Assembly: GCA_046155625.1 (NCBI GenBank)
Contig: JBJXFS010000359.1
Location: 35,767-99,766 of the forward strand
Direction: 5' to 3'
Length of the DNA: 64,000 nt
From: Verrucomicrobiales bacterium
Lineage (GTDB): Bacteria; Verrucomicrobiota; Verrucomicrobiia; Verrucomicrobiales; V1-33
Every line of letters begins with the position of its first letter. Positions within the stretch are counted from its first letter, which is position 1. Position numbers and translations under genes: made by a program. Of the stretch, positions 215-36,391 are shown piece after piece. The notes beneath the pieces were generated by a model. It saw only the letters and a list, made by a program, of their open reading frames with translations, searched no databases and was not told where the DNA came from.

Positions 215-255
215 AAATGTAAAAGTCAGCGTAACGGCTCCAATTGCGATCTGAA

Positions 256-1206
256 ATGCCTCGCCTCACGCTTCATCAGACTCTGAACAACTCACGTTGG
301 TGGATTTACCAGCGAGAGCGGTTTCCCATTTTTGCCCACGGACTGCTCATCGCCGCTTTCAGCGCCTCGGCCGTCAGCTTCTCGGCCCTTCTGCGCGGCG
401 GTTCGCCTCCGCCAGCGATCGCTTCGTATCTGACGGCCTTCGTCACCTCATTCCTGCTCTTTCTGCAGCTTCGCATCGCCGACGAGCACAAAGACTTTGA
501 CGAAGACCGAGCGCACCGACCGTATCGGCCAGTCCCTCGCGGCCTCGTCACCCTGCGAGAGTTGGCCGCGCTCGCCGCGGCCGGGGCTTTCGCCCAGCTT
601 GTTTTGGCGGCGGCGGTCTCGTGGCACCTGGTCGGCCTGCTTCTCCTCACCTGGACATACCTGGCCCTCATGACCAAGGAGTTCTTCGTTCGTGATTGGC
701 TCGTCGCCCGTCCGGTCACGTACCTTTGGACTCACATGCTGATCATTCCGTTGGCGGACTTTTACGCGACCGCCTGCGATTGGCTGCGGGCGGGCCAGGC
801 CGCGCCACCCGGACTCTTTTGGTTCATCGCCGCCAGTTTCACCAACGGCGTCGCCTTGGAAATCGGTCGCAAAATCCGATCCCCCGACGGCGAGGAACCC
901 GGCGTCCGAACCTACTCGTCCCTCTGGGGGCCCAAGACCGCCACCACCGTCTGGCTCGCCGCCCTCGCCGCGACCGCCGCCTGCGCGCTGCCGGCCGCCC
1001 AGCGCATCGACTTCCTCGCGCCCGCCACCGTCGTACTGGGCAGCTTCTTCGTTACCGCCATTCTGATCGCGCGCGCGTTTGTCGCCAGTCCGATCATGCC
1101 ACGCGCCCGGCGCCTCGACCAGTTCTCCGCCCTTTGGACAGTCGCACTGTATTTAACCTTGGGGATCATCCCTCTGCTCCTTCGAGGCATCAGGTGGGAC
1201 GGGTGA
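256..1206 (+). CDS. UbiA-family-like integral membrane prenyltransferase
   Basis: ORF 244..1206 opens with TTG; the first ATG is at 256. Hydrophobic throughout, with multiple predicted TM helices. The Asp-rich loop LRIADEHKDFDEDRAHRPYRPVPRGL resembles the first UbiA motif (D-x-x-x-D ... RP-x-P-x-G). First gene of the same-strand operon. Confidence 0.6.
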   Translation: MPRLTLHQTLNNSRWWIYQRERFPIFAHGLLIAAFSASAVSFSALLRGGSPPPAIASYLTAFVTSFLLFLQLRIADEHKDFDEDRAHRPYRPVPRGLVTLRELAALAAAGAFAQLVLAAAVSWHLVGLLLLTWTYLALMTKEFFVRDWLVARPVTYLWTHMLIIPLADFYATACDWLRAGQAAPPGLFWFIAASFTNGVALEIGRKIRSPDGEEPGVRTYSSLWGPKTATTVWLAALAATAACALPAAQRIDFLAPATVVLGSFFVTAILIARAFVASPIMPRARRLDQFSALWTVALYLTLGIIPLLLRGIRWDG

Positions 1207-1306
1207 TCCTGCCAGGGCTTGGCGCGGATCTCCGCCCAATGGCGGATGGCAATCTGATTGGAGACGGGCATGGTCGGGATGGCCGCCAGGGTGCGGCGCC
1301 GCCTTG

Positions 1307-4045
1307 ATGACATTCGTATTCTGGCCAGAAAATGCCTCCACCGCCGGTGATATCGGCGGCAAGGCGTTGGCGTTATGGAGTTTGAGAGATAGTGGTCTCT
1401 CCGTTCCGGCATGGTTTGCGGTGTTGCCGTCGGCCTTTGCCGCCAGTGTGCCGGATTCTTTGAGGCAGTCCCTCCACCGCGACCTGGCCGACGCGGAGGC
1501 GGACTTATTGGGTGACGATTTGACCGGCGTGACCCCAAGCCGGGAGGTCGCCGTCGAGCTTGCGGCAGCAGTGGCGCGGCGGGCGCCAGCCGGCGAGTGG
1601 CTGGCGGTGCGTTCATCGGCGGTGGACGAAGATGGGATTGCGACCTCGTTCGCCGGCCAGTACGAATCCCTCTTGGCGGTGCGGCCAGACCAGGTCCTGG
1701 AGGCCGTGGCCACGGTGTGGCGCTCGGCATTCTCGAGCCGCGTCAGCGCGTATCGCAGGGCGCGCGGTCTCCCGGCCAAGTTGTCGGTACCGGCGGTTTT
1801 GGTGCAACGGTTGGTCCGGGCCGACTCCTCAGGTGTCGTTTTTGGCGCGGATCCGGTGAGCGGCCGACGCGACCGGTTAGTGGTGTCGGCAGTTCCCGGA
1901 TTTGGGATCGGACTAGTCCAAGGCGAGACCGATGCGGATACGTGGCACCTCGATGCGGACGGGCATGTGCTCAGCCGGAAGATCGCCCGCAAACCGGCCG
2001 CTTGGCGACTCGGTGACGGCGCCCTGAGTCAGCAACCGTTGAGCGAAAAGGACGGTGGACGAGCCACGCTCACCGACACCCAACTCGCCGAACTGGCCGG
2101 CGTGACCCGGACCGCGGGGCGCCATTTTGGAAGCCCGCAGGATGTCGAGTGGGCCATCGAGAACGGAACCATCCATATCGTCCAATCGCGGCCCATCACC
2201 ACGCTGAGCAACCGGCCCATCGATGACGCCCCGGTCGCAATCTGGGATAACAGCAACATCGTCGAAAGTTACTCGGGTGTGACGACGCCACTGACCTTCT
2301 CGTTTGCACAACGCGCCTATGAAGGCGTTTACCGTCAGTTCTGCCGGTTGCTGGCCGTGCCGGCCGCCCGGATCGAGGCCAGTGACCAGGTATTCCGAGG
2401 CATGCTTGGGCTGCACCAAGGACGGATCTACTACAACCTGTTGAACTGGTACCGCGTTCTCGCTCTGCTACCGGGGTTCACCGTGAACCGACGGTTCATG
2501 GAGCAAATGATGGGAGTGAAAGAACCGATGCCGACGGATGTCGTCGCCACACTGGAATCGGCGGGATCCGGAGCGCGCATCCGGGACGGCCTTCGGCTCG
2601 CTCTGAGCACCGTCACCCTCGTCGTCCACCACTGGCGCCTGCCTGCGATGATCCGGCGGTTCCGGACCCGCTTGGACGAGGCTCTCAGCTCTCAAGACAC
2701 CGCCTTGGACCAGCAACACTCCGGAACTCTGGCCTCATCGTTTCTCGACCTCGAACGTCGACTGCTCCGCCGCTGGGACGCTCCCCTGATCAACGATTTC
2801 CTAACGATGATCTTCTTCGGGGTGCTGCGCGATCTGACCGCCCGGTGGAGTGGCCAGACAGACGCGATGCTCCACAACGACCTGCTGAGCGACGGCGGCG
2901 GCATGCTGAGCGCTGAACCCGCACGCCTCATCGCCAACCTGGCTGGGCTGGCCACTGCTATTTCCGAATTACCGGCGCTCCTCATGCACGGCGATCGCGC
3001 CGCCATTGATGCCGCAATTGACCACGCGCCAACGCTCCGAACCGGGATTGACGCGTATCTCGCGCGCTTCGGCGAACGATGCTTCGACGAACTCAAGCTC
3101 GAAAGCTCCACCTTGCTCGACAACCCATTGCCGCTCTACCGCGCCATCGGAAGACTGGCGTCCAAACCAGCGTCCACAGCCGACTACACGCCGACTCCCA
3201 CTTCCGCCACCCCGCGCACCACCGCGGAAAAACGCATGGCCCGCACACTGGCCGGCCACCCAATACGGACCCTCGTCTTTCGCTGGGTCCTGCATCGAGC
3301 CCGCACCGGCGTGCGCGATCGTGAGAACCTGCGCCTCGAACGCACACGCCTTTTCGGTCGCGTGCGCCATCTCCTGCGCGCCCTGGGTCGGCGCTTTCAT
3401 GAGGCGGGAGCGCTCGATCACCCGGACGATGTGTTTTTTCTCGAGATCGATGAAGTGCTCAATCACGTCTCCGGTACCGGCTCCTCCGTGCAACTCCGCG
3501 CCCTCGCTGACCTGCGCCGCAAGGAATTCCAGGCTTATCGTCGCGCGGCCCCGCCGCCCAACCGCTTCACCACCCATGGCATCCCAAGCGCTCATCGGCC
3601 GGTCAGCGATGTCGAATCCACGGGCGCATCTGCGACCCACTCCGCGGCAGAGTCGTCCGCCACGACCAGCGATGAGCGCCGCGGTCTCGGATGCTGCCCG
3701 GGAAAGGTGCGCGGCCGAGTCTGTGTGGTGACCGATCCGGCCCAGACCGGCGTGCGGCCGGGCGACATTCTGGTGGCCGAGCGTACCGACCCCGGCTGGG
3801 TGCTCTTGTTTCCTTGTGCGGCCGGCCTGCTGGTCGAGCGCGGCAGCCTGCTCTCGCACTCCGCCATTGTCGCCCGCGAACTCCGCCTGCCCGCCATCGT
3901 GTCCATCATCGGCCTGATGTCGTGGCTCCGCGACGGTGATCACGTGGAATTCGACGGCGCCTCCGGCGTGGTGCGCCGGCTTTCTTCGGCCCGAACGATT
4001 TCCGCCGGCCCGCCATCGATTTCGTCGATACTTGTGGCCGATTAA
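1307..4045 (+). CDS. PEP/pyruvate-binding (ATP-grasp) + swivel-His 'PEP-utilising' dikinase-like protein (PpsA / rifampin-phosphotransferase architecture)
   Basis: The N-terminus GDIGGKALALWSL..GLSVPAWFAV ... SPQDVEWAIENGTIHIVQSRPIT matches the PPDK_N ATP-grasp signature. The C-terminus TDPGWVLLFPCAAGLLVERGSLLSHSAIVARELRLPAIV matches the PEP-utilisers mobile His domain. There is no C-terminal TIM-barrel PEP-binding domain. ATG at 1307 directly follows the TTG at 1304. Confidence 0.85.
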   Translation: MTFVFWPENASTAGDIGGKALALWSLRDSGLSVPAWFAVLPSAFAASVPDSLRQSLHRDLADAEADLLGDDLTGVTPSREVAVELAAAVARRAPAGEWLAVRSSAVDEDGIATSFAGQYESLLAVRPDQVLEAVATVWRSAFSSRVSAYRRARGLPAKLSVPAVLVQRLVRADSSGVVFGADPVSGRRDRLVVSAVPGFGIGLVQGETDADTWHLDADGHVLSRKIARKPAAWRLGDGALSQQPLSEKDGGRATLTDTQLAELAGVTRTAGRHFGSPQDVEWAIENGTIHIVQSRPITTLSNRPIDDAPVAIWDNSNIVESYSGVTTPLTFSFAQRAYEGVYRQFCRLLAVPAARIEASDQVFRGMLGLHQGRIYYNLLNWYRVLALLPGFTVNRRFMEQMMGVKEPMPTDVVATLESAGSGARIRDGLRLALSTVTLVVHHWRLPAMIRRFRTRLDEALSSQDTALDQQHSGTLASSFLDLERRLLRRWDAPLINDFLTMIFFGVLRDLTARWSGQTDAMLHNDLLSDGGGMLSAEPARLIANLAGLATAISELPALLMHGDRAAIDAAIDHAPTLRTGIDAYLARFGERCFDELKLESSTLLDNPLPLYRAIGRLASKPASTADYTPTPTSATPRTTAEKRMARTLAGHPIRTLVFRWVLHRARTGVRDRENLRLERTRLFGRVRHLLRALGRRFHEAGALDHPDDVFFLEIDEVLNHVSGTGSSVQLRALADLRRKEFQAYRRAAPPPNRFTTHGIPSAHRPVSDVESTGASATHSAAESSATTSDERRGLGCCPGKVRGRVCVVTDPAQTGVRPGDILVAERTDPGWVLLFPCAAGLLVERGSLLSHSAIVARELRLPAIVSIIGLMSWLRDGDHVEFDGASGVVRRLSSARTISAGPPSISSILVAD

Positions 4046-4085
4046 TATATTGGATCATTTTCGTCTCATCAGAGCACTTTCCTCA

Positions 4086-6608
4086 ATGATCTTGCCCCCC
4101 ACTCTCGAACTGCGACACGGTGCCACTCAGGAGTCAGTGCCGCCGCCGCCCCATCACAAGCCGCGGCTCACGGAACTCCTCGAATCGCTGAGGCTCGATG
4201 TTGATTACGAGCGGGGCGACGGATGCTATTTATATGGTCGCGACGAACAGGGCGCCGAGGTTGAGGTGTTGGACTTGGTCGGCGGCTATGGATCTCTCTT
4301 GCTTGGGCACGCGCATCCTGAGTTGGTGGCGGAGGCCCAGCGGTTGCTCGCCTCGGGCATACCCATCCACGCGCAGGGAACGCGCTCCGCGATGGCGGAG
4401 CGCCTGGCGAGTGCCTTGTCCCGCCGCGCGCAGGGTGACTATTGCGTTGTCTTTGGAAACTCGGGCACGGAAGCGATCGAGGCGGCCGTCAAGCATGCCA
4501 TGCTCGAAACCGGCGCCCGCACGTTCATCGCCCTCGAACGCGGCTTCCACGGGAAAACCCTGGGCGCCCTGCAATTGACGGCTCACCTCAACCATCGCGG
4601 CGGCTGGGAAACACCCGGGCTTTCAGTGATCCGCGTTCCCTTGAATGATGGGCAGGCGCTCGACCGCGCCTTCGCCGAGGCTGGGCGTCCCGCCGGGTTC
4701 ATTTATGAGCCGGTGCAAGGCGAAGGCGGCGTGCATGCCATGGATCCGGCCTTTGCGCAACGCGCCGCCGGCTTGTGTCGCGCCACTGGAGCCCCCCTCA
4801 TTGCCGATGAATGCCAGACTGGCCTCGGCCGAACCGGTACGTTTCTCGCCAGCGAACAACTCGGCGTGCGGCCGGATTACATCGTGCTCTCGAAGGCACT
4901 GGGCGGCGGGCTGGCCAAAATTTCCGCACTCCTCGTCCGGCGCGATCGCTATTGCGATGCGTTTGATCTCAAACACACCAGCACCTTCGCGGGAGATGCC
5001 TTCTCGTGCGCCATCGCCCTCAAAGTCCTGGATCTCGTCAGACCCGAGTTGATGACCGCGTGCCGCGAAAAGGGCGATAGGCTCATGCGCGGATTGGCGA
5101 CGTTGGCCGCCCGCTACCCGTCCGTCGTCTCGGAGGTGCGCGGCCAGGGGTTACTCGCTGCCATTCAGTTCCGCCGGTTGCGCCAATCGCCCAGCTTCGT
5201 CCTGCGGTTGCTGAGCGCTCAGGAGGATCTGACTTATGCCCTGACCAGCCATCTTTTGGCGCGCCACCGGCTGCGCGTCGCTCCCACCTTGAGCGATCCG
5301 TTCGTCCTTCGCCTCGAACCCTCTGCGTTGATCGACGACCAGGAAATCGATCGCACCGTGCAGGCGCTCGACTCGGTCTGCCAGCTCCTCGAAGCGGGTG
5401 ATGCCGTGAACCTCATGAGACATCTCGGCAACGGACGCGCCCCCGAATCTGGCTACCCGCGATGCCTCCGCGATGACCATCGCCTCGTGTTCTTCAATGA
5501 ACCGCGGGATCTCAAGCCAAGCGCCGACGCCCCCCCCGTCAAAGTCGCCTGGCTGTGCCACATGATCGACGACCAGGACTTCATCTCGCTTGATTCATCG
5601 TTTTCCGAATTGTCCCGACTCGACCGGAACGCCCTGCTGAACCGCTGGCTGCCCCGCGCGTCCCCGGTCGTGATGAGCCGGGTGGCCGTCAGGTCCACTC
5701 GGGGCACGGTTGTCGAGTTTCTGCCGATCATGCTGCCGTTTACATCCCGTTGGGTGAAGGAAGCGATGGATGCGCGCAGCCTCGATGCCGCCCAGGAACT
5801 CGTCCAGCGCGGCGTGGAAACGGCTGAAGCACTGGGATGCCGCCTCGTCTCGCTCGGCCAGTATACGTCGATGGTGACGATGAACGGTACGCGACTCGAT
5901 CCCCGCGGTCTCGGCATCACCACAGGCAACAGTTATGCGATCGCGCTGGCGATGCAAGCCGTGGCACGAGCCTGCCGGGATGGCGGAATTGAACCGTCGG
6001 CCAGCACTGTGGCGGTCGCCGGCGCCACCGGCAATATCGGGCGCACCTGTGCTCAGATTCTGGCCCGCCACTTTCGCCGGATCATCCTGATCGGATCCTC
6101 ACGGAGTGGGTCATTGGCGCGCCTTAAAACACTCGCCGCTTCTTTGCCCGATGCCGTGGTGGCCACTGACTTGAGCGCCGCCGCCAGGGCTGAAGTGGTG
6201 GTGGCCGCGATGAACTCGGTCGAGGCCCCGATCGAAAGCGCTCACCTCGCTCCAGGGGCGGTGGTCTGCGATCTCTCGATCCCTGCCAGCGTGCTCCCGG
6301 ACTTGAACGCGCACCGACCGGATGTCCGCATCATCCTCGGCGGCTTGGCCGCTCTGCCTTTCGCGGAAGACCTGCGTATCACCGGGTTCCCTCGACCCGC
6401 CGGACAAATCTACGCCTGCATGGCCGAAGCCATGATCCTCGGCTTCGAAGATCGGCGCGATCGTTGGTTCACCGGTTCGCTGAGCCCGGACCATGTCACG
6501 CACATCGCCCGCCTGGCCAATCATCATGGATTCAAGTTGGCCGCCTACAAGGAGAGCTCCGTGCTCGGATCCCCTCACCATGAACCCGCCTTCGCCATCG
6601 CCCGTTAA
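4086..6608 (+). CDS. fusion protein: class-III (PLP) aminotransferase + long-chain acyl-ACP reductase (AAR)-like NAD(P)H domain
   Basis: N-terminal half: LDLVGGYGSLLLGHAHPELV, NSGTEAIEAAVKHA, ADECQTGLGRTG and LSKALGGG (Lys codon 4893-4895) are class-III aminotransferase motifs. C-terminal half (from ~5538): SLGQYTSM, ITTGNSYA, the Rossmann loop TVAVAGATGNIGRTCAQIL, and IYACMAEAMILGFE (Cys codon 6417-6419). By eye these are collinear with cyanobacterial AAR (..VAVVGATGDIGSAVCRWL.. / ..MFACFAEAMLLEFE.., recalled from memory). I chose the ATG at 4086; the ORF is open from 3936. Confidence 0.85.
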   Translation: MILPPTLELRHGATQESVPPPPHHKPRLTELLESLRLDVDYERGDGCYLYGRDEQGAEVEVLDLVGGYGSLLLGHAHPELVAEAQRLLASGIPIHAQGTRSAMAERLASALSRRAQGDYCVVFGNSGTEAIEAAVKHAMLETGARTFIALERGFHGKTLGALQLTAHLNHRGGWETPGLSVIRVPLNDGQALDRAFAEAGRPAGFIYEPVQGEGGVHAMDPAFAQRAAGLCRATGAPLIADECQTGLGRTGTFLASEQLGVRPDYIVLSKALGGGLAKISALLVRRDRYCDAFDLKHTSTFAGDAFSCAIALKVLDLVRPELMTACREKGDRLMRGLATLAARYPSVVSEVRGQGLLAAIQFRRLRQSPSFVLRLLSAQEDLTYALTSHLLARHRLRVAPTLSDPFVLRLEPSALIDDQEIDRTVQALDSVCQLLEAGDAVNLMRHLGNGRAPESGYPRCLRDDHRLVFFNEPRDLKPSADAPPVKVAWLCHMIDDQDFISLDSSFSELSRLDRNALLNRWLPRASPVVMSRVAVRSTRGTVVEFLPIMLPFTSRWVKEAMDARSLDAAQELVQRGVETAEALGCRLVSLGQYTSMVTMNGTRLDPRGLGITTGNSYAIALAMQAVARACRDGGIEPSASTVAVAGATGNIGRTCAQILARHFRRIILIGSSRSGSLARLKTLAASLPDAVVATDLSAAARAEVVVAAMNSVEAPIESAHLAPGAVVCDLSIPASVLPDLNAHRPDVRIILGGLAALPFAEDLRITGFPRPAGQIYACMAEAMILGFEDRRDRWFTGSLSPDHVTHIARLANHHGFKLAAYKESSVLGSPHHEPAFAIAR

Positions 6609-8772
6609 AACGTCCCACCACGAAATCGGCGGCAAGGCGGCGACGTTGGTCGACTTGCAACTCGCCGGCTTCCAGGTGCCTGAGTTCCTGTGCACAACCG
6701 ACGCTTCATCCGCGGTCGCCACGCTCGGGTTGCCGCTCGCCGTGCGATCCTCGGCCTCGGCCGAGGACGGGCGCCAGGCGTCATTCGCCGGTCAATTCCG
6801 CAGCTTCCTCAATCTCCAGTCGGTGGATGAAGTTCAAACGGCCATCGGCCGCTGTCTCGCCTCGCTGGGAGCTGAGGCCGTCGCGAATTATTGCCGCCAC
6901 CATGGACTCGATCCGCGTTCGCTCCGCATGACGGTGATCGTGCAGCGGATGATCCAGCCAGAGTTATCGGGGGTTGCCTTTACCGTCAATCCGGCCACGG
7001 GGAGCGAGGAAGTAGTGGTTGAGGCGTGCGAAGGCGTGGGCGAGGCGTTGATGGCCGGGCACGCGGCCGCTCTGCCGCCCGACCACCCGATCCTCCGCCG
7101 ACACGCGGCGGAAATCACTCGGCTGGCTCGTGACATCCAAAGACATTTTGGAACGCCGCAGGACATTGAGTTCGCCGTGCAAGACGAGCGCGTGTTCATT
7201 TTACAGGCGCGACCCGTGACGCGCATCCAATTTGCCCCCGGCACAGGCGAGTGGACCAATGCGGACTTTCGTGACGGCGGCGTCTCGTCCGGTGTCTGCA
7301 CGCCGCTCATGTGGTCGTTGTACGACTTCATTTGGGAGGACGCGCTCAAGGGGTTTCTCCGCGACATCCGGCTGTTCCGCGGCGATTTCCCGGCGGGACG
7401 CGTCTTTTTCGGCCGGCCGTACTGGAACCTCGGCGCCGTGAAACACTGCCTCGCCCGACTCCCTGGCTTCGTGGAGCGCGAGTTCGACCGCGACCTCGGC
7501 GTGGAGCCCGCCTACGACGGCGACGGCAAGGTGACGCCGGTCACCCTGCGCGGCGTGCTGCGCGCACTGCCGACCATCGCTGCCATCCCGGCAGTTTGGA
7601 GACGACAGGAACGCGTGGCCCGCGAACTGCTGGACGGCGGCTTCGACCGGTTGACCTCCGGCTTCCGCACCATCCCCGATGATCCGGTGCCCGCCTTGCA
7701 GCAACTGGTCGAATTCGCTTACCGCACGGTGGAAACTGAGTACTTCCGCACGATCTATTGCGCATCGCTGGCCAAGCTCGCGTTCCTGGAGTCGTTTCCC
7801 GATGCCGACTACCCCGCGCTGGTTTCGGCGCTTCCGGAAATGAGGCATCTCGACCCCACGCGGGCCATGCGCGCGATGGTTCGCCGGGGCGAGTGCGATC
7901 CGGCCTCCTTTCAGCAGGCGTTTGCCCACCGCAGCCGCCGCGAGCTGGATATCCGTGCGCCGCGCTGGGACGAAGATCCCGAGTGGGTGCGGCAGATGAT
8001 CGAGCACGCCGGGACCGAACCCCCCGCCGATCCACAGCCGGCGTACCTCCGCGCGAGGGTCAAGGCGATGGCCGCCCTGCCCCGGCGGAAGCGCCGCTCG
8101 TTCGAACGCAAGCTCGACCGCCTGCGCACTTTCCTTTGGCTGCGCGAGGAAATGCGCGATCTCTCGAGCCGGATGTACCACCTGATCCGTCGCCACGTGC
8201 TCGCCGTGGCCCGCCAACGCCGACTCGGTGATGACATTTTCTTCATGACCTTCGGGGAAATCCTCGCCGACAACAGATCGGGCATACCGCGAGCGCGCGA
8301 GACTTACGAGGCATTCCGAAATTTCAAGGCGCCCAACGAAATCAGGTCCGGCATGGCCAGCCGCGTGGCACGCCAAAACGGCGAGCTGACAGGCACTGCG
8401 GCGAGCCGGGGAGTCGTGCGTGGGACGGCCCGCATCGCGCGTTCGATCGAAGAGGCGATGACGGTTGAGCGCGGCGCCGTGCTGATATGCCCCTTTACCG
8501 ACCCCGGCTGGACGCCGGTCCTCGATCGTGTGGCCGCCGTGGTCACCGAAACCGGCGGGTTGCTCTCGCACGCCGCAGTCATCTGCCGTGAATTCGCCCT
8601 GCCCGCCGTGCTCGGCGTGCCCGACGCCACTTCCCGCATCCCTCAGGGAGCCACCGTGGTCGTTGACGGCCAGTCCGGAGTCGTCACGATCGAAAGCGCG
8701 GCCCCCTCGCTGAGGGTCGAATGCCCCGTTCACACCCCAGTCACATCACAACAATCCGCCACCGCCTCATGA
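6580..8772 (+). CDS. second PEP/pyruvate-binding + swivel-His dikinase-like protein (paralog type of 1307..4045)
   Basis: HHEIGGKAATLVDLQLAGFQVPEF ... TPQDIEFAVQDERVFILQARPVT matches PPDK_N. The C-terminal FTDPGWTPVLDRVAAVVTETGGLLSHAAVICREFALPAVLG matches the mobile His domain. ATG 6580 overlaps the upstream stop at 6608 by 29 nt. The ORF is open from 6493. Confidence 0.85.
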   Translation: MNPPSPSPVKTSHHEIGGKAATLVDLQLAGFQVPEFLCTTDASSAVATLGLPLAVRSSASAEDGRQASFAGQFRSFLNLQSVDEVQTAIGRCLASLGAEAVANYCRHHGLDPRSLRMTVIVQRMIQPELSGVAFTVNPATGSEEVVVEACEGVGEALMAGHAAALPPDHPILRRHAAEITRLARDIQRHFGTPQDIEFAVQDERVFILQARPVTRIQFAPGTGEWTNADFRDGGVSSGVCTPLMWSLYDFIWEDALKGFLRDIRLFRGDFPAGRVFFGRPYWNLGAVKHCLARLPGFVEREFDRDLGVEPAYDGDGKVTPVTLRGVLRALPTIAAIPAVWRRQERVARELLDGGFDRLTSGFRTIPDDPVPALQQLVEFAYRTVETEYFRTIYCASLAKLAFLESFPDADYPALVSALPEMRHLDPTRAMRAMVRRGECDPASFQQAFAHRSRRELDIRAPRWDEDPEWVRQMIEHAGTEPPADPQPAYLRARVKAMAALPRRKRRSFERKLDRLRTFLWLREEMRDLSSRMYHLIRRHVLAVARQRRLGDDIFFMTFGEILADNRSGIPRARETYEAFRNFKAPNEIRSGMASRVARQNGELTGTAASRGVVRGTARIARSIEEAMTVERGAVLICPFTDPGWTPVLDRVAAVVTETGGLLSHAAVICREFALPAVLGVPDATSRIPQGATVVVDGQSGVVTIESAAPSLRVECPVHTPVTSQQSATAS

Positions 8773-9407
8773 ACCACCGACTCGCCGCCTACGCCGCCGC
8801 CCTCGCTTTCACTTTAATGCCGACGCCCGGCCTCGGCCAGGCGCCCGACGCCGCGGCCCCCGAGGCACCGGCTATTACCAGTCCCGGCGACACTAGCCCA
8901 GACGCCGAAGCGGCGCACGAGGCGCTGCGCGCGTTGCGCACGGAAATCATCGACGCCATCACCAAGGGAGACATGGATCGTGTGCTCAACTCGGTCACTC
9001 CAAATGTCGTGGTCACCTGGCAGAACAACGAAGTCTGCCGTGGTCGCGACGGGCTTCGCGATTTTTTCAATCGCATGGGCAAGGATGCGTTCAAGGGGTA
9101 CAAGGTGCCACCCACCCCGGACGACCTGACCCTGCTTCACGACGGCGATACGGGAATCTCGGTCGGCGAAACCGTCGCCGCCTACAACCTGCTCGGCGGA
9201 TCGTACGAACTTAAAAGCCGGTGGACCGCCACCCTGGTCAAAGAAGGCGACCGTTGGCTGCTCGCCGGCTACCACATCTCCATGAATGTGCTCGACAACC
9301 CGATCCTCGCCGCGGCCAAAGGATCGCTCTATGGCGTGGCGGGCGCCACACTGGTCGTTGGACTGGCGGTCGGTTTCATTCTCGGACGCAGGCGCCGTGC
9401 CGCGTAA
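8769..9407 (+). CDS. NTF2-like (SnoaL/DUF4440-type) protein with N-terminal signal peptide and C-terminal TM anchor
   Basis: MNHRLAAYAAALAFTLMPTPGLGQA is signal-like. The core ..ITKGDMDRVLNSVTPNVVVTWQNNEVCRGRDGLRDFF...GDRWLLAGYHISMNV is typical of the NTF2-like fold. The C-terminal LYGVAGATLVVGLAVGFILGRRRR is a TM helix followed by a basic tail. The start ATG overlaps the upstream TGA (ATGA at 8769-8772). Confidence 0.6.
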   Translation: MNHRLAAYAAALAFTLMPTPGLGQAPDAAAPEAPAITSPGDTSPDAEAAHEALRALRTEIIDAITKGDMDRVLNSVTPNVVVTWQNNEVCRGRDGLRDFFNRMGKDAFKGYKVPPTPDDLTLLHDGDTGISVGETVAAYNLLGGSYELKSRWTATLVKEGDRWLLAGYHISMNVLDNPILAAAKGSLYGVAGATLVVGLAVGFILGRRRRAA

Positions 9408-9451
9408 ACCGCCGCCGGTCGCCGGCCACCGGCCCCCCTCGATCGCCACCG

Positions 9452-10618
9452 ATGAATTCCGTCGCTCAGGATTTGCCGCCAATAGACGCGACCGCCAGCG
9501 AGGCCGCGACACGCGCGGATTTTTCGATCCTGCGCTACGCCCAGTGCTGGGAGGATGCCGATATCCTGCTCGAGGCGCTCGATGTGCGCCCGGGCGCCGT
9601 CTGCCTGTCGATCGCCTCCGCGGGTGACAACGCGCTCGCCCTGCTCGCCCGCCAACCGGCCCGCGTCGTGGCCGTTGACCTGAGCCCAGCACAATTGGCA
9701 TGCCTGGAACTGCGGGTGTCCGCCTTTCGCTGCCTCGACCATGCCGGCTTGCTGGAGCTCGTCGGATCCCGCCCGAGCGCGCGGCGCCGTGAATTGTACG
9801 CCCGCTGCCGGCCTTCTCTCGCGCCCGCCACCCGCGCCTTCTGGGATGGCCGCGTCGCGGACATCGATCGGGGCATCGGCGGAGCGGGAAAATTCGAGCA
9901 CTACTTCCAGACGTTCCGCGATCGCGTCCTTCCACTGGTTCATTCGAGAGCTCAGGTCGATCGCTTGCTGGCGGGCGGCACGGTCGAGGCGCGGTCGTCA
10001 TTTTACCGCGACGAATGGAACACGTGGCGATGGCAGCTGATGTTCCGCCTGTTCTTCTCGCGATTTGTCATGGGCCGGATGGGGCGCGACCCGAGCTTCT
10101 TTCGTTTCGTCGAGGGAAGCGTGGCCAGCCGGATCCTGACGCGGGCCGAGCACGCCCTCACCGCGCTCGACACGGCCGCAAATCCCTACCTCCAATGGAT
10201 CCTGACGGGTCGCCACCTGACTGCCCTGCCGTTTGCCCTGCGCGAGGAAAACTTCGATGCCATCCGCTCGCATCTCGACCGTCTCGAATGGCACCGCGAA
10301 CCGCTCGAGGCATTTCTCAAACGCACACCGCCCGCGACATTCGACGCCTGCAACCTCAGCGATATTTTCGAATACATTTCCGAACCGAGCTTCCACCGGC
10401 TCCTCGGGCAAATCGTGCAGTCCGCGCGTCCCGGCGCCCGGCTCGCCTACTGGAACACGCTGGCCGACCGACGGCGACCCGAGTCCATGGCCGATGCACT
10501 GCGACCTCTCCCAGACTTGAGCCGCCGGCTGCTCGCGCAGGACAAGGCATTTTTTTACTGTGCGTTTCATGTCGAGGAGGTCGTCGGTCAGACAGTTGAT
10601 TCTCCTTCACTGCCGTGA
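9452..10618 (+). CDS. DUF3419 / BtaA-like (S-adenosylmethionine:diacylglycerol 3-amino-3-carboxypropyl transferase-like) protein
   Basis: N-terminus ..FSILRYAQCWEDADILLEALDVRPGAVCLSIASAGDNALALLARQPARVVAVDLSPAQLACLELR.. is the characteristic DUF3419/BtaA start, including a SAM-MTase-like Gly-rich loop. ATG at 9452; the ORF is open from 9221. Confidence 0.75.
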   Translation: MNSVAQDLPPIDATASEAATRADFSILRYAQCWEDADILLEALDVRPGAVCLSIASAGDNALALLARQPARVVAVDLSPAQLACLELRVSAFRCLDHAGLLELVGSRPSARRRELYARCRPSLAPATRAFWDGRVADIDRGIGGAGKFEHYFQTFRDRVLPLVHSRAQVDRLLAGGTVEARSSFYRDEWNTWRWQLMFRLFFSRFVMGRMGRDPSFFRFVEGSVASRILTRAEHALTALDTAANPYLQWILTGRHLTALPFALREENFDAIRSHLDRLEWHREPLEAFLKRTPPATFDACNLSDIFEYISEPSFHRLLGQIVQSARPGARLAYWNTLADRRRPESMADALRPLPDLSRRLLAQDKAFFYCAFHVEEVVGQTVDSPSLP

Positions 10619-11586
10619 ACGGCCCTCCCTCCATCGCCGGGCCGGTGGCGCCGATACCATCGCCGTTTGATCCGAATCGCCAGCCGGGTCCTCCACCGCA
10701 AGCGCATCTCGATGTTCGGGATCCAGCGGGAGGCGTACTGGCGCGGTGTTCGCTCTGGTGGCGCGACCTGCCCCGCGTCGATGGACGACGACCGGGGTTC
10801 ATCGGGCACTTTACCTCCGGGTCGGAGACCGCGGCGGCAGCTCTCTTGCGCGATGCCTGCCGGCGATTGGCCGCTGATAGGTGTGAGCTCGCCATCGGGC
10901 CAGTGGATGGCAGTACCTGGGGAAACTATCGATTCGTCACAGCCAGCTCCGGCGAGCCACCCTTTCTATTCGAACCGGATCACCCGCCTGAATGGCCTGC
11001 GTTTTTCGTCGACGCCGGTTTTTGGCCTCTGGCGCGCTATTATTCCACCGCCACAGAAAAATTGGACGTCGCCAATCCTAAGGGGGATCGCGCGGCAACT
11101 CGACTGCTTGCCGGCGGTTGTCGGATTCGCACGCTCGAGTCGTCCCGGCTGACGCAGGAACTCGAGGCGGTCCACGGCGTCATTTTGGCCGCTTTTGCCG
11201 GCGCCTTGCTGTACCAGCCGATGCCGCGGGACGCGTTTGTGGCCGAACAGACTCGGATCGGCCCACTGCTTCGACCGGACCTCGTCCTCGTGGCCGAGAG
11301 GCAGGGCTCGGTGGTCGGCTTTCTCTTTGCCATTCCCGACCACCGTCAGGCGGCCCAAGCGAAGCCGATCGACACGGTGATCATCAAAACGCTCGCCGTC
11401 CTCCCGGGACGCGAGAATGCCGGGCTCGGCGTCTGGCTGGTCCGCCAGTTGCATCGGTCGGCCAAGGCGCTCGGGTTTCGCCGGGTCATCCACGCCCTCA
11501 TGCACGAGTCGAACTATTCGCTCAATATCCACCGCGAGTCGACCCGATGGCTGCGCGAATACACGCTTTTCGCCCGCACCCTGTGA
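10615..11586 (+). CDS. GNAT-family N-acyltransferase with N-terminal extension
   Basis: The C-terminal part VIIKTLAVLPGRENAGLGVWLVRQLHRSAKALGFRRVIHALM fits the GNAT acyl-CoA-binding motif A (Q/R-x-x-G-x-G/A). The GTG start overlaps the upstream TGA (GTGA at 10615-10618). Confidence 0.65.
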   Translation: MNGPPSIAGPVAPIPSPFDPNRQPGPPPQAHLDVRDPAGGVLARCSLWWRDLPRVDGRRPGFIGHFTSGSETAAAALLRDACRRLAADRCELAIGPVDGSTWGNYRFVTASSGEPPFLFEPDHPPEWPAFFVDAGFWPLARYYSTATEKLDVANPKGDRAATRLLAGGCRIRTLESSRLTQELEAVHGVILAAFAGALLYQPMPRDAFVAEQTRIGPLLRPDLVLVAERQGSVVGFLFAIPDHRQAAQAKPIDTVIIKTLAVLPGRENAGLGVWLVRQLHRSAKALGFRRVIHALMHESNYSLNIHRESTRWLREYTLFARTL

Positions 11587-13178
11587 ACATCGCCGACCTG
11601 CTCACCGCCCGCGCCTCAACCGACGGCGACTCGCTGGCGGTCATCGACGACACGGACGCCGCGCACCACAGCCTGACATTTGGCCAGTTTGAGCGGGCCG
11701 CGACCCGCATCGCCGCTTACCTCCATACCCTGAGACTTCGTACCGGTGACCGTGTGCTGGTCCTGCAACCGCTCTCACTAGAGCTGTGTCTCATCCTCGT
11801 CGCCATTCTGCGCGCCGGTCTGGTGGCGGTGTTCGTCGACCCATCGGCGGGGCTCAGCCATCTCGACTCCTGCTGTCGAACATCTCAACCGCGCGCTTTC
11901 ATCGGATCCAGACGGGCCCACCTGCTGCGGTTGCTTTCCCCGGGCCTGCGACGCATCCCGATGAAATGGCGCGGTGACTCTCTCGTCCACCGAGCCCTCA
12001 CGGAATCGGGTGGCGATCCGGAATCGTTCACGCGTCCCGATTTACCCGCAACCGCTCCCGCGCTGGTCCGGTTCACCAGTGGCAGCACCGGCGTGCCCAA
12101 AGCCGCTGTCCGTTCCCACGGATTCCTGCTGGCTCAACTGCGGGCCATCAAAGTCCACCTTCACCTTGAGCACGGCCAGACCGACCTCATCACCATGCCC
12201 ATGTTCATGCTGCCAAACCTGGCCGCTGGCATCACGTCCGTCCTCCCCGCCGCCGACATCCGAGCCCCGGGACGCATCGACGCCAAGTCGTTCATCCGGC
12301 AGATCCACGAGCGCCGCCCCGACCGCCTCACCGCCTCTCCCGCGCTCCTCCAGCGGTTGGTGGAATTTGCCCATACCCATACCCAATCGGCCAGCTCACT
12401 GCGCCGCATCGATACCGGGGGCGCGCCCGTCCATCCACGATTGCTCGACCACCTCCAGCCATTCGCCCCGAATGCCACGGTCACCGCGGTCTACGGGTCG
12501 ACCGAAGCCGAACCGATCGCCCTCCTGCCGGCGGAATCCATCACCGCCACCGACCGCCAGCGCATGGCATCGGGAGCCGGGTTGCTCGCCGGTCGCCCCG
12601 TGCCGGACATCGAAATCCGCATGTTCCGAGTGAGACTCGAACCGCCAGCCCGCCGATTGAGCGCGGACGAATTCGAGGCCCTGAGCGTCAGTCCCGGCCA
12701 ACCAGGGGAAATCGTCGTCCATGGTCCCCATGTCCATCCAGGCGACACCGACAATCCGGCCGCCGAACCAACCAAATTGTTCGTTGGCAAGACCGTCTGG
12801 CATCGCACGGGGGACGTCGGTCGCCTGGAAGCGGACGGCCGCCTGTGGCTGCTCGGGCGTTCGTCGGCCCGCCTCGATGACCCGCGCGGCACGCTCTATC
12901 CCTTTGAAATCGAAACCGCCGCCCTCATGAATGACTCCATTCGCCACGCCGCCCTCGTCGCCATCGACGGCCGCCGCATCCTCGCCGTCGAGCCGACCCG
13001 CCCAGGCCATCCACCCATCATACCAGACCCAATCCGCACCCAAGTCGACGACGTGCGGATCGTCCGCGCGCTGCCACTCGACCGCCGCCACAATGCCAAA
13101 ATAGACTATGCGCAACTGCGGAGACGTCTGTTTAAGTCAAGTAAGCGGAATGCCGCCAGACCTCAATGCTTCGAATGA
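11547..13178 (+). CDS. AMP-dependent synthetase/ligase (ANL adenylating enzyme, acyl-CoA-ligase-like)
   Basis: LVRFTSGSTGVPKAAV is the AMP-binding core motif. VYGSTEAEP, WHRTGDVGRL and the C-terminal ..RRHNAKIDY.. are the other ANL motifs. No carrier-protein domain. The start is ATG 11547 or GTG 11583, which would give a GTGA overlap with the GNAT stop. The Arg/Pro-rich ORF extension back to 11118 was rejected. Confidence 0.85.
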   Translation: MAARIHAFRPHPVNIADLLTARASTDGDSLAVIDDTDAAHHSLTFGQFERAATRIAAYLHTLRLRTGDRVLVLQPLSLELCLILVAILRAGLVAVFVDPSAGLSHLDSCCRTSQPRAFIGSRRAHLLRLLSPGLRRIPMKWRGDSLVHRALTESGGDPESFTRPDLPATAPALVRFTSGSTGVPKAAVRSHGFLLAQLRAIKVHLHLEHGQTDLITMPMFMLPNLAAGITSVLPAADIRAPGRIDAKSFIRQIHERRPDRLTASPALLQRLVEFAHTHTQSASSLRRIDTGGAPVHPRLLDHLQPFAPNATVTAVYGSTEAEPIALLPAESITATDRQRMASGAGLLAGRPVPDIEIRMFRVRLEPPARRLSADEFEALSVSPGQPGEIVVHGPHVHPGDTDNPAAEPTKLFVGKTVWHRTGDVGRLEADGRLWLLGRSSARLDDPRGTLYPFEIETAALMNDSIRHAALVAIDGRRILAVEPTRPGHPPIIPDPIRTQVDDVRIVRALPLDRRHNAKIDYAQLRRRLFKSSKRNAARPQCFE

Positions 13179-13266
13179 CGAACCGCACCCCCGCACCCAT
13201 CCTGAACACTCTGACCCTAGTCGCCAGAAAAAACACGATCACCCGTGGCACGACCACCTTGAAAGC

Positions 13267-13331
13267 GACAATGGGACGGGTAATTAGAATGCCGACAATG
13301 GGACGGGCAATTAGAAGGCAATTAGAATGCC
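13267..13331. repeat. tandem ~27-nt repeat GACAATGGGACGGG(T/C)AATTAGAA(T/G)GCC (2 copies + partial third)
   Basis: Read directly: gacaatgggacgggtaattagaatgcc / gacaatgggacgggcaattagaaggc / aattagaatgcc. A third related copy lies at 15104-15122. Confidence 0.8.
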
Positions 13332-13517
13332 ACCTCACAGACCTGTATCGCCGTGAGGCGCACCGTGTGGTGCATCGGTACCACTCCAGATGCGTGCAAA
13401 AAGAAGTCCGCCCTGGGATGAGGCGAGTTCTTGAACAAATGGGTTCCGTGGAGTCGCTTTACTGGATAGTCTTCGACACAATCCCGGAATCCCGATGGAG
13501 CCCGCCCGCCGCGGGAC

Positions 13518-14783
13518 ATGGGTGATTATTCTCCAATCTCATCCGACCTCATGACCGAATCCTTTGGCCAACACATACGTCCTCCGTTCCGTGGTATCGC
13601 GTGTTCCCATCGGTCAAATCGATGGGCCTTGTGGATTGGCTCGGCGGCGCTTGCGGGAGCCGTGTCGGCTGCGGAGCCGGTGCCGCCGCCGTCGATTGAG
13701 GCTCTGCTCAAGTCGCTTGAAAGCGTGGATTTTGGCGAGCGCGAGCGGGCCTTAGACGGCTTGAGCGCGCAGCGGGACGCTGCGGGCGACCGTGTGCCCG
13801 AGCTTCGGGAGCGTCTCCGCGATTCGGACCGGGAATCCCGTCAACGTGCGGGCCAAGCCCTGGCAGCGCTGGGAGTGAGCGAGACAGCTGTCATTGATGA
13901 ATTGATCTCTGGGATGGAGCGCCGAGTGCGCAACCGGTATCTGAACGGTCCGGATCCGGCGCTGACGTCGCTGTCTGCCTTAGTGAAGCTGGGAGCTCCA
14001 GCCGTGCCCGCTTTAGTCAAGGCCATGGAGAATCCTGGCTACACGAATAGCGATTGGGTCGTGATGACCCTGGGTCGGATGGGGCCTCAGGCCAGGGAGG
14101 CGGTACCGGCGCTGCTGCGACGCATGGAATCGGACACCGTAGCGGTCCAGTGCGCCGCCATTGAGGCGAAGTGGCGTATCGACGGGGACGCTGTGTTTGT
14201 CCGGGAGCGCGCCATTCCGCTGCTCGATTTGAAGGGCGGGCTCGAATGCAATGGCGCCGTCCACACGCTGGCGCTGCTCGGGCCCGACGCGGTGCCGGTG
14301 CTACCTGCTGTCATTGCGGCGCTCGAGAAATATGAGCATCTCGGCGTTTTGTACACATTGGCCGGCTTGGCTTGCCACGCTCCGGAGCAAGTCCTGCCCG
14401 TCCTGCGCCGGGCTCTTGATAACCCGCGCCTCGCTGACGCCGCGGCTGAACATCTCCAGAATTTGGGCGAACCATCCGGCCCGCTGATCCGTCATCAGCT
14501 GAAGCGACTCAAAGCGTCCGCCCCGGAGGACGGCAGCGATCCGATGCGAATCATTTATACGATCGTCGTCCACGGACCTGAGGCCACCGTCTTTCTGGAC
14601 GACTTGGTCGCCCTGCTCAAACACGAAACCCCCGCTGTGCGCCGCGCCGCTGCTTGGGGGCTCCCCCGCATTTTCGCGCCTGAAGCGCCCGTCGTGGCGG
14701 CGCTGAAACAAGCCGCCAGCGACCCGGCCACCGCCGAAGAAGCCGCCCGGAGTCTGGGGGTGGTGGAGCAAGCTCGACGCTAA
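13518..14783 (+). CDS. HEAT-repeat (PBS-lyase HEAT-like) protein, probably secreted
   Basis: Hydrophobic segment WALWIGSAALAGAVSAAEP, followed by repeated ~30-aa units with the pattern ..R..A..AL..LG......P.L...L.D (for example VPELRERLRDSDRESRQRAGQALAALG and PALVKAMENPGY). Start uncertain (13518 or 13551). Confidence 0.65.
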   Translation: MGDYSPISSDLMTESFGQHIRPPFRGIACSHRSNRWALWIGSAALAGAVSAAEPVPPPSIEALLKSLESVDFGERERALDGLSAQRDAAGDRVPELRERLRDSDRESRQRAGQALAALGVSETAVIDELISGMERRVRNRYLNGPDPALTSLSALVKLGAPAVPALVKAMENPGYTNSDWVVMTLGRMGPQAREAVPALLRRMESDTVAVQCAAIEAKWRIDGDAVFVRERAIPLLDLKGGLECNGAVHTLALLGPDAVPVLPAVIAALEKYEHLGVLYTLAGLACHAPEQVLPVLRRALDNPRLADAAAEHLQNLGEPSGPLIRHQLKRLKASAPEDGSDPMRIIYTIVVHGPEATVFLDDLVALLKHETPAVRRAAAWGLPRIFAPEAPVVAALKQAASDPATAEEAARSLGVVEQARR

Positions 14784-22587: not shown

Positions 22588-23271
22588 TTAAGGCACCGCG
22601 GGCCGCTCGCCACCGTGGCGGATATCGTGTGCGGTTTCGGCGTAGACGATGTCCTCAGCGATATTCACCGCGTGATCCCCGACGCGCTCAAGACCGCGGA
22701 CGATGAACATTAGATCGACATAGTCATCAATGTGCGTCACGTCTTCCTGTGACCGCCGGATCATCCGGCGGATGGCTTCCGAGTAGATCTGGTCGAGCTC
22801 CCGGTCTCTCGCCTCCAGTGACAACGCCAATTTCAGGTCGCTCACGTTGAAGGCGGCCACCGCATCGCGCAGCATGGCTGCCGCCAGATCGTAGACGCCT
22901 TGAATAAATTGCGCCTCGGGCACCGGCGAGTGGCCATTGATTTTCCGCGCCCGGCGCGCGATCGACACCGCTTCATCGGAAACCCGCTCCAACTGCTGAC
23001 CGATCTTCATGGCCACAAAAACCCGGCGCAGATCGGTCGCCACCGGACTGAACTTCATGATGATGTCCAGCCCCGCCTGGTCGATGGCCACCTCCAGACG
23101 GTCCACCGCATCATCGTCTGCGATCACGCTGTTGCACTGAACATTGTCCCGTTCGAGCAATCCATGCACGGCACTCGTCACATTCCGCTGGGCCAAGCTG
23201 GCCATGCGGATCACGTCCTGCTTCAACGAGCGCAGCGATTCCTCGAAGGCCTGCAGAATATGATGGGACAT
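22588..23271 (-). CDS. phoU: phosphate signalling complex protein PhoU
   Basis: Two PhoU repeats with ..E..VD....I.. patterns: AVDRLEVAIDQAGLDIIMKF, RVSDEAVSIARRA, RELDQIYSEAIRRMI and RVGDHAVNIAEDIVY. Start uncertain (23271, 23313 or 23334). Confidence 0.9.
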   Translation of the reverse strand: MSHHILQAFEESLRSLKQDVIRMASLAQRNVTSAVHGLLERDNVQCNSVIADDDAVDRLEVAIDQAGLDIIMKFSPVATDLRRVFVAMKIGQQLERVSDEAVSIARRARKINGHSPVPEAQFIQGVYDLAAAMLRDAVAAFNVSDLKLALSLEARDRELDQIYSEAIRRMIRRSQEDVTHIDDYVDLMFIVRGLERVGDHAVNIAEDIVYAETAHDIRHGGERPAVP

Positions 23272-27026: not shown

Positions 27027-27031
27027 CCCGC

Positions 27032-36388: not shown

Positions 36389-36391
36389 AAG

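Follow-up and report, generated by a model that had tools for sequence, protein, structure and literature searches.

An eight-gene operon of a Verrucomicrobiales bacterium with a TamH-type transaminase-reductase fusion and a candidate role in the synthesis of a fatty-amine-derived amphiphile

Comparison with described pathways

In the tambjamine pathway of Pseudoalteromonas, the enzyme TamH consists of a transaminase followed by a thioester reductase which resembles the acyl-acyl carrier protein (ACP) reductase (AAR) and carries a GxxGxxG motif and a catalytic cysteine (PMC9594044). Together with the ANL-ACP enzyme TamA, TamH converts fatty acids to fatty amines (PMC9594044), and in vitro it produced dodecylamine from C12-acyl-ACP (PMC9594044; bioRxiv 10.1101/2025.08.11.669332). 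Fatty-amine formation of this type has hitherto been characterised only in the tambjamine pathway. Here, it forms the centre of an operon which is conserved in several phyla that are abundant in the environment and little studied. The operon was analysed in a 64,000-nucleotide stretch of a Verrucomicrobiales bacterium contig (JBJXFS010000359.1, positions 35,767 to 99,766; hereafter the window), where eight genes occupy positions 256-13178, all on the plus strand (Table 1). Judged from protein sequence, the TamA/TamH/TamQ part of tambjamine biosynthesis comes closest to it among known systems. The joint claim that the eight genes are one translationally coupled operon and that it makes a fatty-amine-derived amphiphile, which stays in the cell envelope or is exported through it, is in our estimate about evenly balanced between right and wrong. 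Probably, a known fatty-amine module is embedded here in a widespread and uncharacterised lipid-forming operon.

A preliminary description of the window had matched its enzyme combination to no characterised pathway, which held in part: the ANL enzyme, the fusion and the PigC/RedH-like enzymes mirror TamA, TamH and TamQ, while five other functions are added to them. The likeness to tambjamine YP1 biosynthesis in Pseudoalteromonas tunicata comprised a fusion in the TamH domain order, an ANL enzyme and enzymes of the PigC/RedH family. However, the operon was without the bipyrrole (MBC) genes and TamT, its ANL enzyme was without the ACP domain of TamA, and it had two dikinase-like paralogues instead of one, with DUF3419, tandem GNAT, UbiA and membrane-anchored NTF2 proteins in addition, and occurred in other phyla. 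For prodigiosin biosynthesis, the reductase (4PPM residues 63-336) and transaminase domains of PigE from Serratia were both homologous to the fusion but stand in the opposite order, and the RedH model from Streptomyces aligned end to end with dikinase-like enzyme 1, central domain included. Nevertheless, the scores were far below the NCBIfam cut-offs (PigE 375 bits against 850 for the transaminase part of the fusion; RedH 327 against 1350 and PigC 251 against 1300 for dikinase-like enzyme 1) and the operon was without pyrrole chemistry. The Listeria rifampin phosphotransferase (Rph; 5FBS/5HV1) was the best solved relative of both dikinase-like enzymes and has an identical three-part architecture with a swivel histidine, but the central domains were barely alignable (24.7 bits for enzyme 1, none for enzyme 2) and the operon around these enzymes is a biosynthetic one.

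The Pfam family DUF3419 includes BtaA, the S-adenosylmethionine (SAM):diacylglycerol 3-amino-3-carboxypropyl transferase of the BtaA/BtaB pathway to the betaine lipid DGTS. Unlike in that pathway, no BtaB N-methyltransferase, or any other methyltransferase, was found in the operon or in the annotated open reading frames (ORFs) of the window, and the conserved partner of DUF3419 was an amine-forming enzyme and not a glycerolipid enzyme. The cyanobacterial AAR of the alkane pathway was homologous to the reductase and shares its nucleotide motif and the position of its catalytic cysteine. Here, however, the reductase is fused to a transaminase and no deformylating oxygenase was present in the operon; therefore, the aldehyde would be aminated rather than decarbonylated. 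The ornithine, lysine and glycine lipids of the OlsB/OlsA type share with the operon a GNAT-fold N-acyltransferase and possibly a phosphorus-free, amino-acid-headed, N-acyl product, but their synthesis starts from a free amino acid and 3-hydroxyacyl-ACP, unlike the operon. In a term search of a 2024 review on aminolipids, neither 'fatty amine' nor 'aminotransferase' nor 'BtaA' occurred, and 'reductase' occurred only for FabG. A link to the ceramide-phosphoglycerate (Cpg) system of Caulobacter was also considered and rejected, since its proteins are a PgsA-like one (CpgA), a lipid kinase (CpgB) and one without a domain (CpgC), hence no dikinase-like enzyme is among them.

Overall, the operon is distinct from the DGTS, alkane, prodiginine and OlsB/OlsA aminolipid pathways. 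That it is a variant of a known pathway, leading to a tambjamine/prodiginine pigment, a DGTS betaine lipid or a cyanobacterial-type alkane, is very improbable. Such a variant would account for the resemblance of the TamH/PigE-like fusion, the PigC/RedH-like enzymes and the ANL enzyme to TamH, TamQ and TamA, and for the BtaA-family and AAR-like proteins. However, Pfam annotation, which covered all ten ORFs at 244-14783 and another 29 long ORFs in the rest of the 64 kb, found no bipyrrole (MBC), BtaB, ACP or aldehyde-deformylating oxygenase genes; the bipyrrole, BtaB and deformylating oxygenase genes were absent from the annotated neighbourhoods of related loci as well, and the PigC, RedH and PigE scores given above argue in the same direction.

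Transaminase-reductase fusion

The fusion showed a strong match to Aminotran_3 (Pfam, 2.5e-68), and its transaminase domain was related to acetylornithine and putrescine transaminases. AAR-like reductases have no Pfam model, and the call was made by sequence match to solved structures. The C-terminal 369 residues matched the N-terminal domain of PigE (4PPM, 1.9e-19) and the cyanobacterial acyl-ACP reductase 6JZQ/6JZU at about 1e-13 (6JZQ 9e-14), and Cys778 in the stretch IYAC778MAEAM aligned with the catalytic Cys294 of AAR. The AAR-like assignment of the preliminary description, which no hidden Markov model (HMM) library covers, was thus borne out by the solved PigE and AAR structures. A weak match of the reductase domain to Semialdhyde_dh NAD-binding (Pfam) was also present.

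The motifs of the fusion included the pyridoxal phosphate (PLP) lysine in LSK270ALGGG, D241ECQTG, and G646ATGNIG as the GxxGxxG motif; among these, Lys270, D241ECQ and G646ATGNIG were invariant in 23 homologues. The spacing from GxxGxxG to the cysteine was 132 residues in the fusion and 180 in TamH, the latter figure being derived from the motif positions in the TamH paper. By these predicted features, the fusion is a TamH-type enzyme, and TamH can be taken as its true homologue, beyond analogy. The conversion of a fatty acid to an aldehyde and then to a fatty amine by the fusion, as the preliminary description had proposed, is well supported as a prediction because the fusion shares the domain order, the motifs and the AAR-like reductase of the characterised TamH. 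Interest in TamH-like enzymes also comes from biocatalysis, where they could turn fatty acids into amines.

Operon organisation

The ORF listing and inspection of the junctions showed the eight same-strand genes and all four overlaps that had been named before. The start codon ATG of dikinase-like enzyme 2 at 6580 lies 29 nt before the end of the fusion stop codon TAA (6606-6608), and further start/stop overlaps are ATGA at 8769-8772 and GTGA at 10615-10618 and 11583-11586. The other intergenic gaps were 100, 40 and 44 nt. The starts at 9452 and 10615 agreed with those of NCBI proteins from a Verrucomicrobiales metagenome-assembled genome which are 100% identical to the window proteins; these records also confirm that the window comes from the Planctomycetes-Verrucomicrobia-Chlamydiae (PVC) group. 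The catalytic motifs were intact in all operon enzymes by sequence inspection, and Pfam returned the expected family for each of the UbiA, dikinase, class-III transaminase, NTF2, DUF3419, GNAT and ANL calls.

Table 1. Genes of the operon with their window coordinates and the evidence for each call.
Gene product	Position	Strand	Length (aa)	Evidence
UbiA-superfamily integral-membrane prenyltransferase	256..1206	+	316	Pfam UbiA, hydropathy
Dikinase-like enzyme 1: ATP-grasp, central substrate domain, C-terminal swivel-His domain	1307..4045	+	912	PPDK_N, PEP-utilizers
TamH-type fusion (predicted): class-III PLP transaminase, then AAR-like thioester reductase	4086..6608	+	840	Aminotran_3, PDB matches
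Dikinase-like enzyme 2: architecture of enzyme 1, divergent central domain	6580..8772	+	730	PPDK_N, PEP-utilizers
NTF2-like protein (SnoaL/DUF4440), signal-peptide-like N-terminus, C-terminal transmembrane anchor	8769..9407	+		Pfam, sequence inspection
DUF3419 (BtaA-family) SAM-dependent transferase	9452..10618	+	388	Pfam, AlphaFold2 model
Tandem-GNAT N-acyltransferase	10615..11586	+	323	Acetyltransf_1, AlphaFold2 model, Foldseek
ANL adenylate-forming enzyme, fatty-acid-CoA-ligase-like, without carrier domain	11583..13178	+	531	AMP-binding

The operon probably begins at UbiA, because no plus-strand ORF ends in the first 243 nt of the window, where an open minus-strand frame is present, and because the longest ORFs 5' of UbiA in the closest full relatives (loci L089/L090, see below) are on the minus strand. 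Promoter and terminator scans gave nothing over shuffled expectation within the operon, and no riboswitch was found in an Rfam scan.

At the 3' end, a ninth small ORF (13175-13525, about 116 aa, no family match) overlaps the ANL stop codon through ATGA, and a HEAT-repeat protein of 421 aa (13518-14783) overlaps the end of the ninth ORF by 8 nt. Both genes could be co-transcribed with the operon. Neither was found by tblastn in any related locus, and the GC content falls to 0.60 at 13175-14783.

Conservation in related loci

For the synteny counts, metagenomes were scanned with only the reductase domain, and the eight window proteins were searched for by tblastn; related loci are referred to by L numbers. 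A genome-contig scan with the full-length fusion alignment picked up generic class-III transaminase motifs, so that most of its 80 loci were unrelated transaminases and only L005-L009, L021 and L032 could be used. Homologues that match the fusion over its full length with more than 50% identity were numerous and carried the names of Opitutaceae, Verrucomicrobiales, Acidobacteriota, Planctomycetes and Deltaproteobacteria. One of them came from a cultured Horticoccus strain (WP_414662512.1), which makes the question of the operon directly testable.

The eight genes were found in the order of the window in at least four further contigs, independent of one another, at protein identities of 42-82%; the loci are L001, L089/L090 and L102. 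L088 showed a matching order with its upstream end cut off, and L098 had the same eight genes rearranged as two divergent blocks. For 26 orthologue-level loci the sequence beyond the fusion was long enough, and in 18 of them the orthologue of dikinase-like enzyme 2 stands directly after it. The trio of dikinase-like enzyme 1, fusion and dikinase-like enzyme 2 was kept in L146 at 34% identity. In addition, DUF3419 was located directly 3' of fusions with 27-35% identity in L032 (Metabacillus rhizosphaerae), L138, L140, L152 and L163.

The operon is therefore conserved across several soil and freshwater bacterial phyla, as synteny in independent contigs showed. With a GC content of 64% and many long spurious ORFs on both strands, a chance juxtaposition or spurious ORFs had to be considered for this sequence. 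This explanation was refuted, as the gene order recurs in independent contigs at the identities given above, start and stop codons overlap, and every gene has a strong family match.

Dikinase-like enzymes

In Pfam, dikinase-like enzymes 1 and 2 matched PPDK_N (5e-54 and 1e-46) and the C-terminal PEP-utilizers domain (1e-19 and 9e-24), which confirmed the earlier assignment, and their swivel histidines are in SH851S of enzyme 1 and at His664 of enzyme 2. No phosphoenolpyruvate (PEP)/pyruvate TIM-barrel domain was found in either enzyme with Pfam, and PpsA models scored far below cut-off. The best PDB match was Listeria Rph for both, with 5FBS/5HV1 for enzyme 1 and 5HV2/5FBS (1e-51) for enzyme 2. 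Against NCBIfam models, enzyme 1 scored 776 bits with NF004881 (cut-off 883), and enzyme 2 scored 213 bits with PigC and 200 bits with RedH, both below the cut-offs. The Rph model gave 274 bits for enzyme 1 and 241 bits for enzyme 2 (cut-off 999). The central domain of enzyme 1 alone matched RedH at 3.9e-20 and Rph at 6.7e-6, so that its predicted substrate region resembles RedH more than Rph, and the central domain of enzyme 2 had no significant family match.

Comparison of the ATP-grasp regions (6580-7300 for enzyme 2, 1307-2230 for enzyme 1) showed that enzyme 2 keeps the GGK and AVRSSA..ED motifs, with about 45 residues between them missing relative to enzyme 1. In the Rph match, residue 30 of enzyme 2 aligned to residue 101 of Rph. 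A separate ORF with PPDK_N only follows the orthologue of enzyme 2 in L087.

Enzymes of the Rph/PigC/dikinase family transfer the beta-phosphate of ATP via a phosphohistidine to an oxygen, which is the enolate of pyruvate, a hydroxyl of rifampin or, for PigC/TamQ, the carbonyl of MBC. The title of one paper reportedly ties the activation of aniline to the formation of phenylphosphoamidate, and the synthase is probably related to the same enzyme family, which would extend the chemistry to nitrogen. Three roles were considered for the operon enzymes. By analogy with TamQ and PigC, they may activate a carbonyl for condensation with an amine, which is favoured because the family partners TamH/PigE-type enzymes and because the central domain of enzyme 1 is RedH-like. 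By analogy with Rph, they may phosphorylate a hydroxyl or an amine. The preliminary description had them phosphorylate hydroxyl groups, which stands as one possible role, with activation of the PigC/TamQ type as another.

The third role considered is the formation of an acyl phosphate which feeds the reductase. In this explanation, dikinase-like enzyme 2 acts before the fusion, and a carboxylate is turned into an acyl phosphate, reduced and then transaminated in the manner of ArgB/ArgC/ArgD; the substrate may be the carboxylate of the SAM-derived aminocarboxypropyl group and not a fatty acid. It is favoured by the very tight coupling of the fusion and dikinase-like enzyme 2, the tightest gene pair, with the start of the latter overlapping the end of the fusion in L001, L003, L085 and L087, and by the persistence of this pair without any ANL gene in L003, L087, L097, L099 and L100. 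The lack of an ACP in the operon, the weak Semialdhyde_dh match, the relation of the transaminase to acetylornithine/putrescine transaminases and the adjacency of DUF3419 and fusion at 27-35% identity are also consistent with it. However, to our knowledge no member of the PPDK/Rph/PigC family is known to form acyl phosphates and there is no precedent for this reaction among them, the reductase is specifically like AAR, TamH and PigE, which use thioesters, and an ANL gene directly after the fusion in several distant loci fits thioester supply. Overall, the acyl phosphate route is unlikely.

DUF3419, GNAT and ANL proteins

The DUF3419 protein matched its Pfam family at 2.4e-71 (241 bits, cut-off 28.2), in agreement with the earlier assignment, and was the most conserved protein of the operon, with its best 120 homologues 66-80% identical. 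No solved relative was found by sequence. Its AlphaFold2 model (pLDDT 86.4) showed a class-I SAM-fold core which a large insertion of helices interrupts, and comparison of the model with the PDB gave only weak neighbours, all of them SAM enzymes, with TM-scores up to 0.3. Membership of the Pfam family is what suggests an aminocarboxypropyl transfer of the BtaA type for this protein.

The C-terminal half of the GNAT protein matched Acetyltransf_1 at 5e-6. Foldseek searches with its AlphaFold2 model (pLDDT 86.9) matched the tandem GNATs MAB_4324, MshD, glucosamine N-acetyltransferase and VipF (E 1e-13 to 1e-10, TM-scores about 0.55-0.6) and, more distantly, FemX/MprF. G270 and G272 were invariant in 40 homologues and stand in a GxG stretch, which we take to be the CoA-binding loop. 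At least 557 clusters of GNAT homologues were counted.

The ANL enzyme matched AMP-binding (Pfam, 1.4e-49) and has the motifs A3, A5, A7 and A10; no PP-binding domain was found in it with Pfam. In NCBIfam, it scored highest with NF006754, 'fatty acid CoA ligase family', at 362 bits against a cut-off of 478, and models for OleC and long-chain FACL came next. These closest models count in favour of the fatty-amine pathway proposed below.

Membrane proteins

The UbiA protein scored 46 bits in Pfam (4e-12, gathering cut-off 34.2) and showed about eight hydrophobic segments by hydropathy. Its best NCBIfam models were generic prenyltransferases, far below cut-off. The first Asp-rich motif and RPxPxG, together DExxDxxxD...RPxPxG, aligned weakly with the archaeal DGGGP synthase 6M31, and the second motif was not clearly found. 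Orthologues with 53-72% identity occupied the same position in L001, L089/90, L098 and L102.

The NTF2-like protein matched SnoaL_3 (5e-8) and DUF4440 (1.5e-7) in Pfam and scored near the cut-off of the SgcJ/EcaC family in NCBIfam. A signal-peptide-like N-terminus and a transmembrane helix at residues 185-207, followed by RRRR, agreed with the topology suggested previously. Because of this N-terminus and the C-terminal transmembrane anchor, the NTF2 domain is predicted to face the periplasm, on which side the protein probably acts. Its orthologues, 59-82% identical, were found between dikinase-like enzyme 2 and DUF3419 in ten loci. A lipid or envelope product is supported, as UbiA is polytopic and the NTF2-like protein is membrane-anchored.

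Gene neighbourhoods in related loci

De novo ORF clustering of the neighbourhoods was confounded in part by long antisense ORFs at high GC, and the families were then checked with Pfam. MMPL transporters were found near the operon in nine related loci, cytochrome P450 in five, a fatty-acid hydroxylase in three and a sulfotransferase in three, just 5' of the operon in L001, L098 and L102. A second type of ANL enzyme followed the fusion directly in five loci, and DAGK_cat lipid kinases were found in L003 and L087. A variant cluster on an 824-kb metagenome contig (L002, 1640-13313) comprised dikinase-like enzymes 1 and 2, DUF3419, a phosphatidylserine (PS)-decarboxylase-like protein, a GNAT-like protein, the fusion and a fatty-acid desaturase, and no UbiA, NTF2 or ANL gene was found in it. 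The recurrent neighbours, namely MMPL, P450, sulfotransferase, hydroxylase, desaturase, PS decarboxylase and lipid kinase, are of a lipid type.

In L002, the PS-decarboxylase-like gene is located directly after DUF3419. By analogy with the decarboxylation of phosphatidylserine to phosphatidylethanolamine, this arrangement suggests, as the strongest indirect indication of it, that DUF3419 may install an alpha-amino-acid lipid head group which is then decarboxylated.

The cluster of Metabacillus rhizosphaerae (NZ_CP147403.1, 8259-16866) comprised a flavin amine oxidase, a fusion with 30% identity, DUF3419, a Glu/Leu/Phe/Val-type dehydrogenase, an MFS transporter and a TetR protein. This bacterium is a cultured Firmicute and experimentally accessible.

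The same neighbourhoods bear on whether the product is instead an exported specialised metabolite, such as a cationic lipo-amine or lipo-polyamine surfactant, antibiotic or signal, and not a structural membrane lipid. The Rph-like enzymes and the GNAT would then mask a toxic amine inside the cell, with unmasking or export at the periplasmic face. MFS/MMPL exporters, sulfotransferase and P450 flanking the operon in relatives fit such a product, and the PS-decarboxylase-like gene of L002 would give a cation of the N-alkyl-1,3-diaminopropane type. In addition, both dikinase-like enzymes have rifampin phosphotransferases, which inactivate an antibiotic, as their nearest relatives of solved structure, GNATs commonly inactivate amines, the TamH and PigE precedents belong to secondary metabolism, and the distribution is patchy with variable accessory genes. 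However, the dikinase-fusion-dikinase trio was the most deeply conserved part (L146, L002, L103), an unusual finding for resistance genes. The number of GNAT homologue clusters and the occurrence in several phyla show how very widely the cluster is spread, and the operon in the window has no exporter. Neighbours of the MMPL, desaturase, hydroxylase and lipid-kinase types would suit envelope lipids just as well. Such an exported metabolite is thus possible but doubtful; if it is made, it would be a new natural-product family.

Proposed pathway

For the preferred product, a fatty-amine-derived amphiphile, a long-chain acyl thioester from fatty-acid synthesis (acyl-ACP) or from the ANL enzyme would be reduced to the aldehyde by the AAR-like domain with Cys778 and NAD(P)H, and the class-III transaminase domain would convert the aldehyde to a primary fatty amine as in TamH. 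DUF3419 would then transfer the 3-amino-3-carboxypropyl group of SAM onto the amine or onto a hydroxyl of an intermediate, giving an amino-acid-type head group, and the tandem GNAT would N-acylate an amine from an acyl-CoA, of which the ANL enzyme is a possible source. Both dikinase-like enzymes would pass the beta-phosphate of ATP via the swivel histidine to an oxygen, or a nitrogen, of an intermediate, so that either a carbonyl is activated for condensation with an amine, as in PigC/TamQ, or a phosphate ester is left, as in Rph. Finally, UbiA would add a prenyl group in the membrane, and the NTF2-like protein would bind or finish the product at the outer face of the inner membrane. The roles of DUF3419, GNAT, the dikinase-like enzymes, UbiA and NTF2 are those which the chemistry of their families and the conserved neighbourhood suggest. 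The lipid-type neighbours of related loci strengthen the case for these proposed downstream steps and for a membrane-lipid product.

Several results weigh against this pathway. All NCBIfam equivalog scores of the eight proteins were below cut-off, so no protein can be assigned to a specific function, and by sequence the operon proteins belong to known superfamilies but fall outside the named characterised families. The substrate of TamH must be tethered to ACP and acyl-CoA was not accepted (bioRxiv 10.1101/2025.08.11.669332), and the operon had no ACP gene or PP-binding domain in Pfam searches and, with gaps of at most 100 nt, no room for one. For this reason the acyl donor would be either acyl-ACP from housekeeping metabolism, which AAR uses, or the product of the ANL enzyme. 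The partnership with a TamA-like enzyme that the preliminary description took as its precedent accordingly held for the presence of an ANL enzyme beside a TamH-type fusion and failed for the carrier domain. No carbonyl partner for a TamQ-like condensation was evident in the operon, and DUF3419 could be methyltransferase-like rather than an aminocarboxypropyl transferase. In addition, orthologous fusions in L086, L106-L108 and L115 had no dikinase or DUF3419 neighbours, and the Metabacillus cluster looks like a small-molecule use of the fusion-DUF3419 pair rather than a lipid use. Finally, no description of the cluster or of a product linked to it was found in the open-access literature, an absence that is no proof.

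A more specific version of the amphiphile pathway is put forward tentatively, as a whole. The product would be a hitherto undescribed, glycerol-free class of bacterial envelope lipid with a fatty-amine backbone and a SAM-derived aminocarboxypropyl or aminopropyl head, further N-acylated, phosphorylated or condensed, and prenylated. It would occur widely among the Verrucomicrobiota, Acidobacteriota, Planctomycetota and Deltaproteobacteria of soil and freshwater, and the TamH/PigE and PigC/TamQ pair of the pigment pathways would be a secondary recruitment from an older lipid module. An envelope lipid of this kind would bring a new backbone type to bacterial membrane chemistry, and would give functions to DUF3419 beyond betaine-lipid synthesis and to a large branch of proteins annotated as 'PEP synthase'.

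Other features of the window

The annotated ORFs of the window included housekeeping genes and genes typical of the PVC group. A phosphate-uptake locus at 22588-29576, about 10 kb 3' of the operon, comprised PhoU (minus strand), PstS, a long PstC/A-like permease and PstB; it could matter in the case of a phosphorus-sparing lipid product. The minus strand at 35051-40425 encoded PSCyt1 + WD40, DUF1549/DUF1553 (PSCyt2/PSD1) and DUF1501 proteins, a set typical of Planctomycetes/Verrucomicrobia and in keeping with the PVC origin. A SelO-family gene was located at 42536-44002. ARAGORN called a tRNA-SeC at 47299-47381 inside an ORF of 1647 aa with BNR/He_PIG repeats (44170-49113), which is probably a false positive. 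Finally, a protein of 1338 aa at 57755-61771 combined Ser/Thr kinase and formylglycine-generating-enzyme-like (FGE-sulfatase) domains with many ankyrin repeats, and an ECF-type sigma factor gene (56869-57684) was found just 5' of it.

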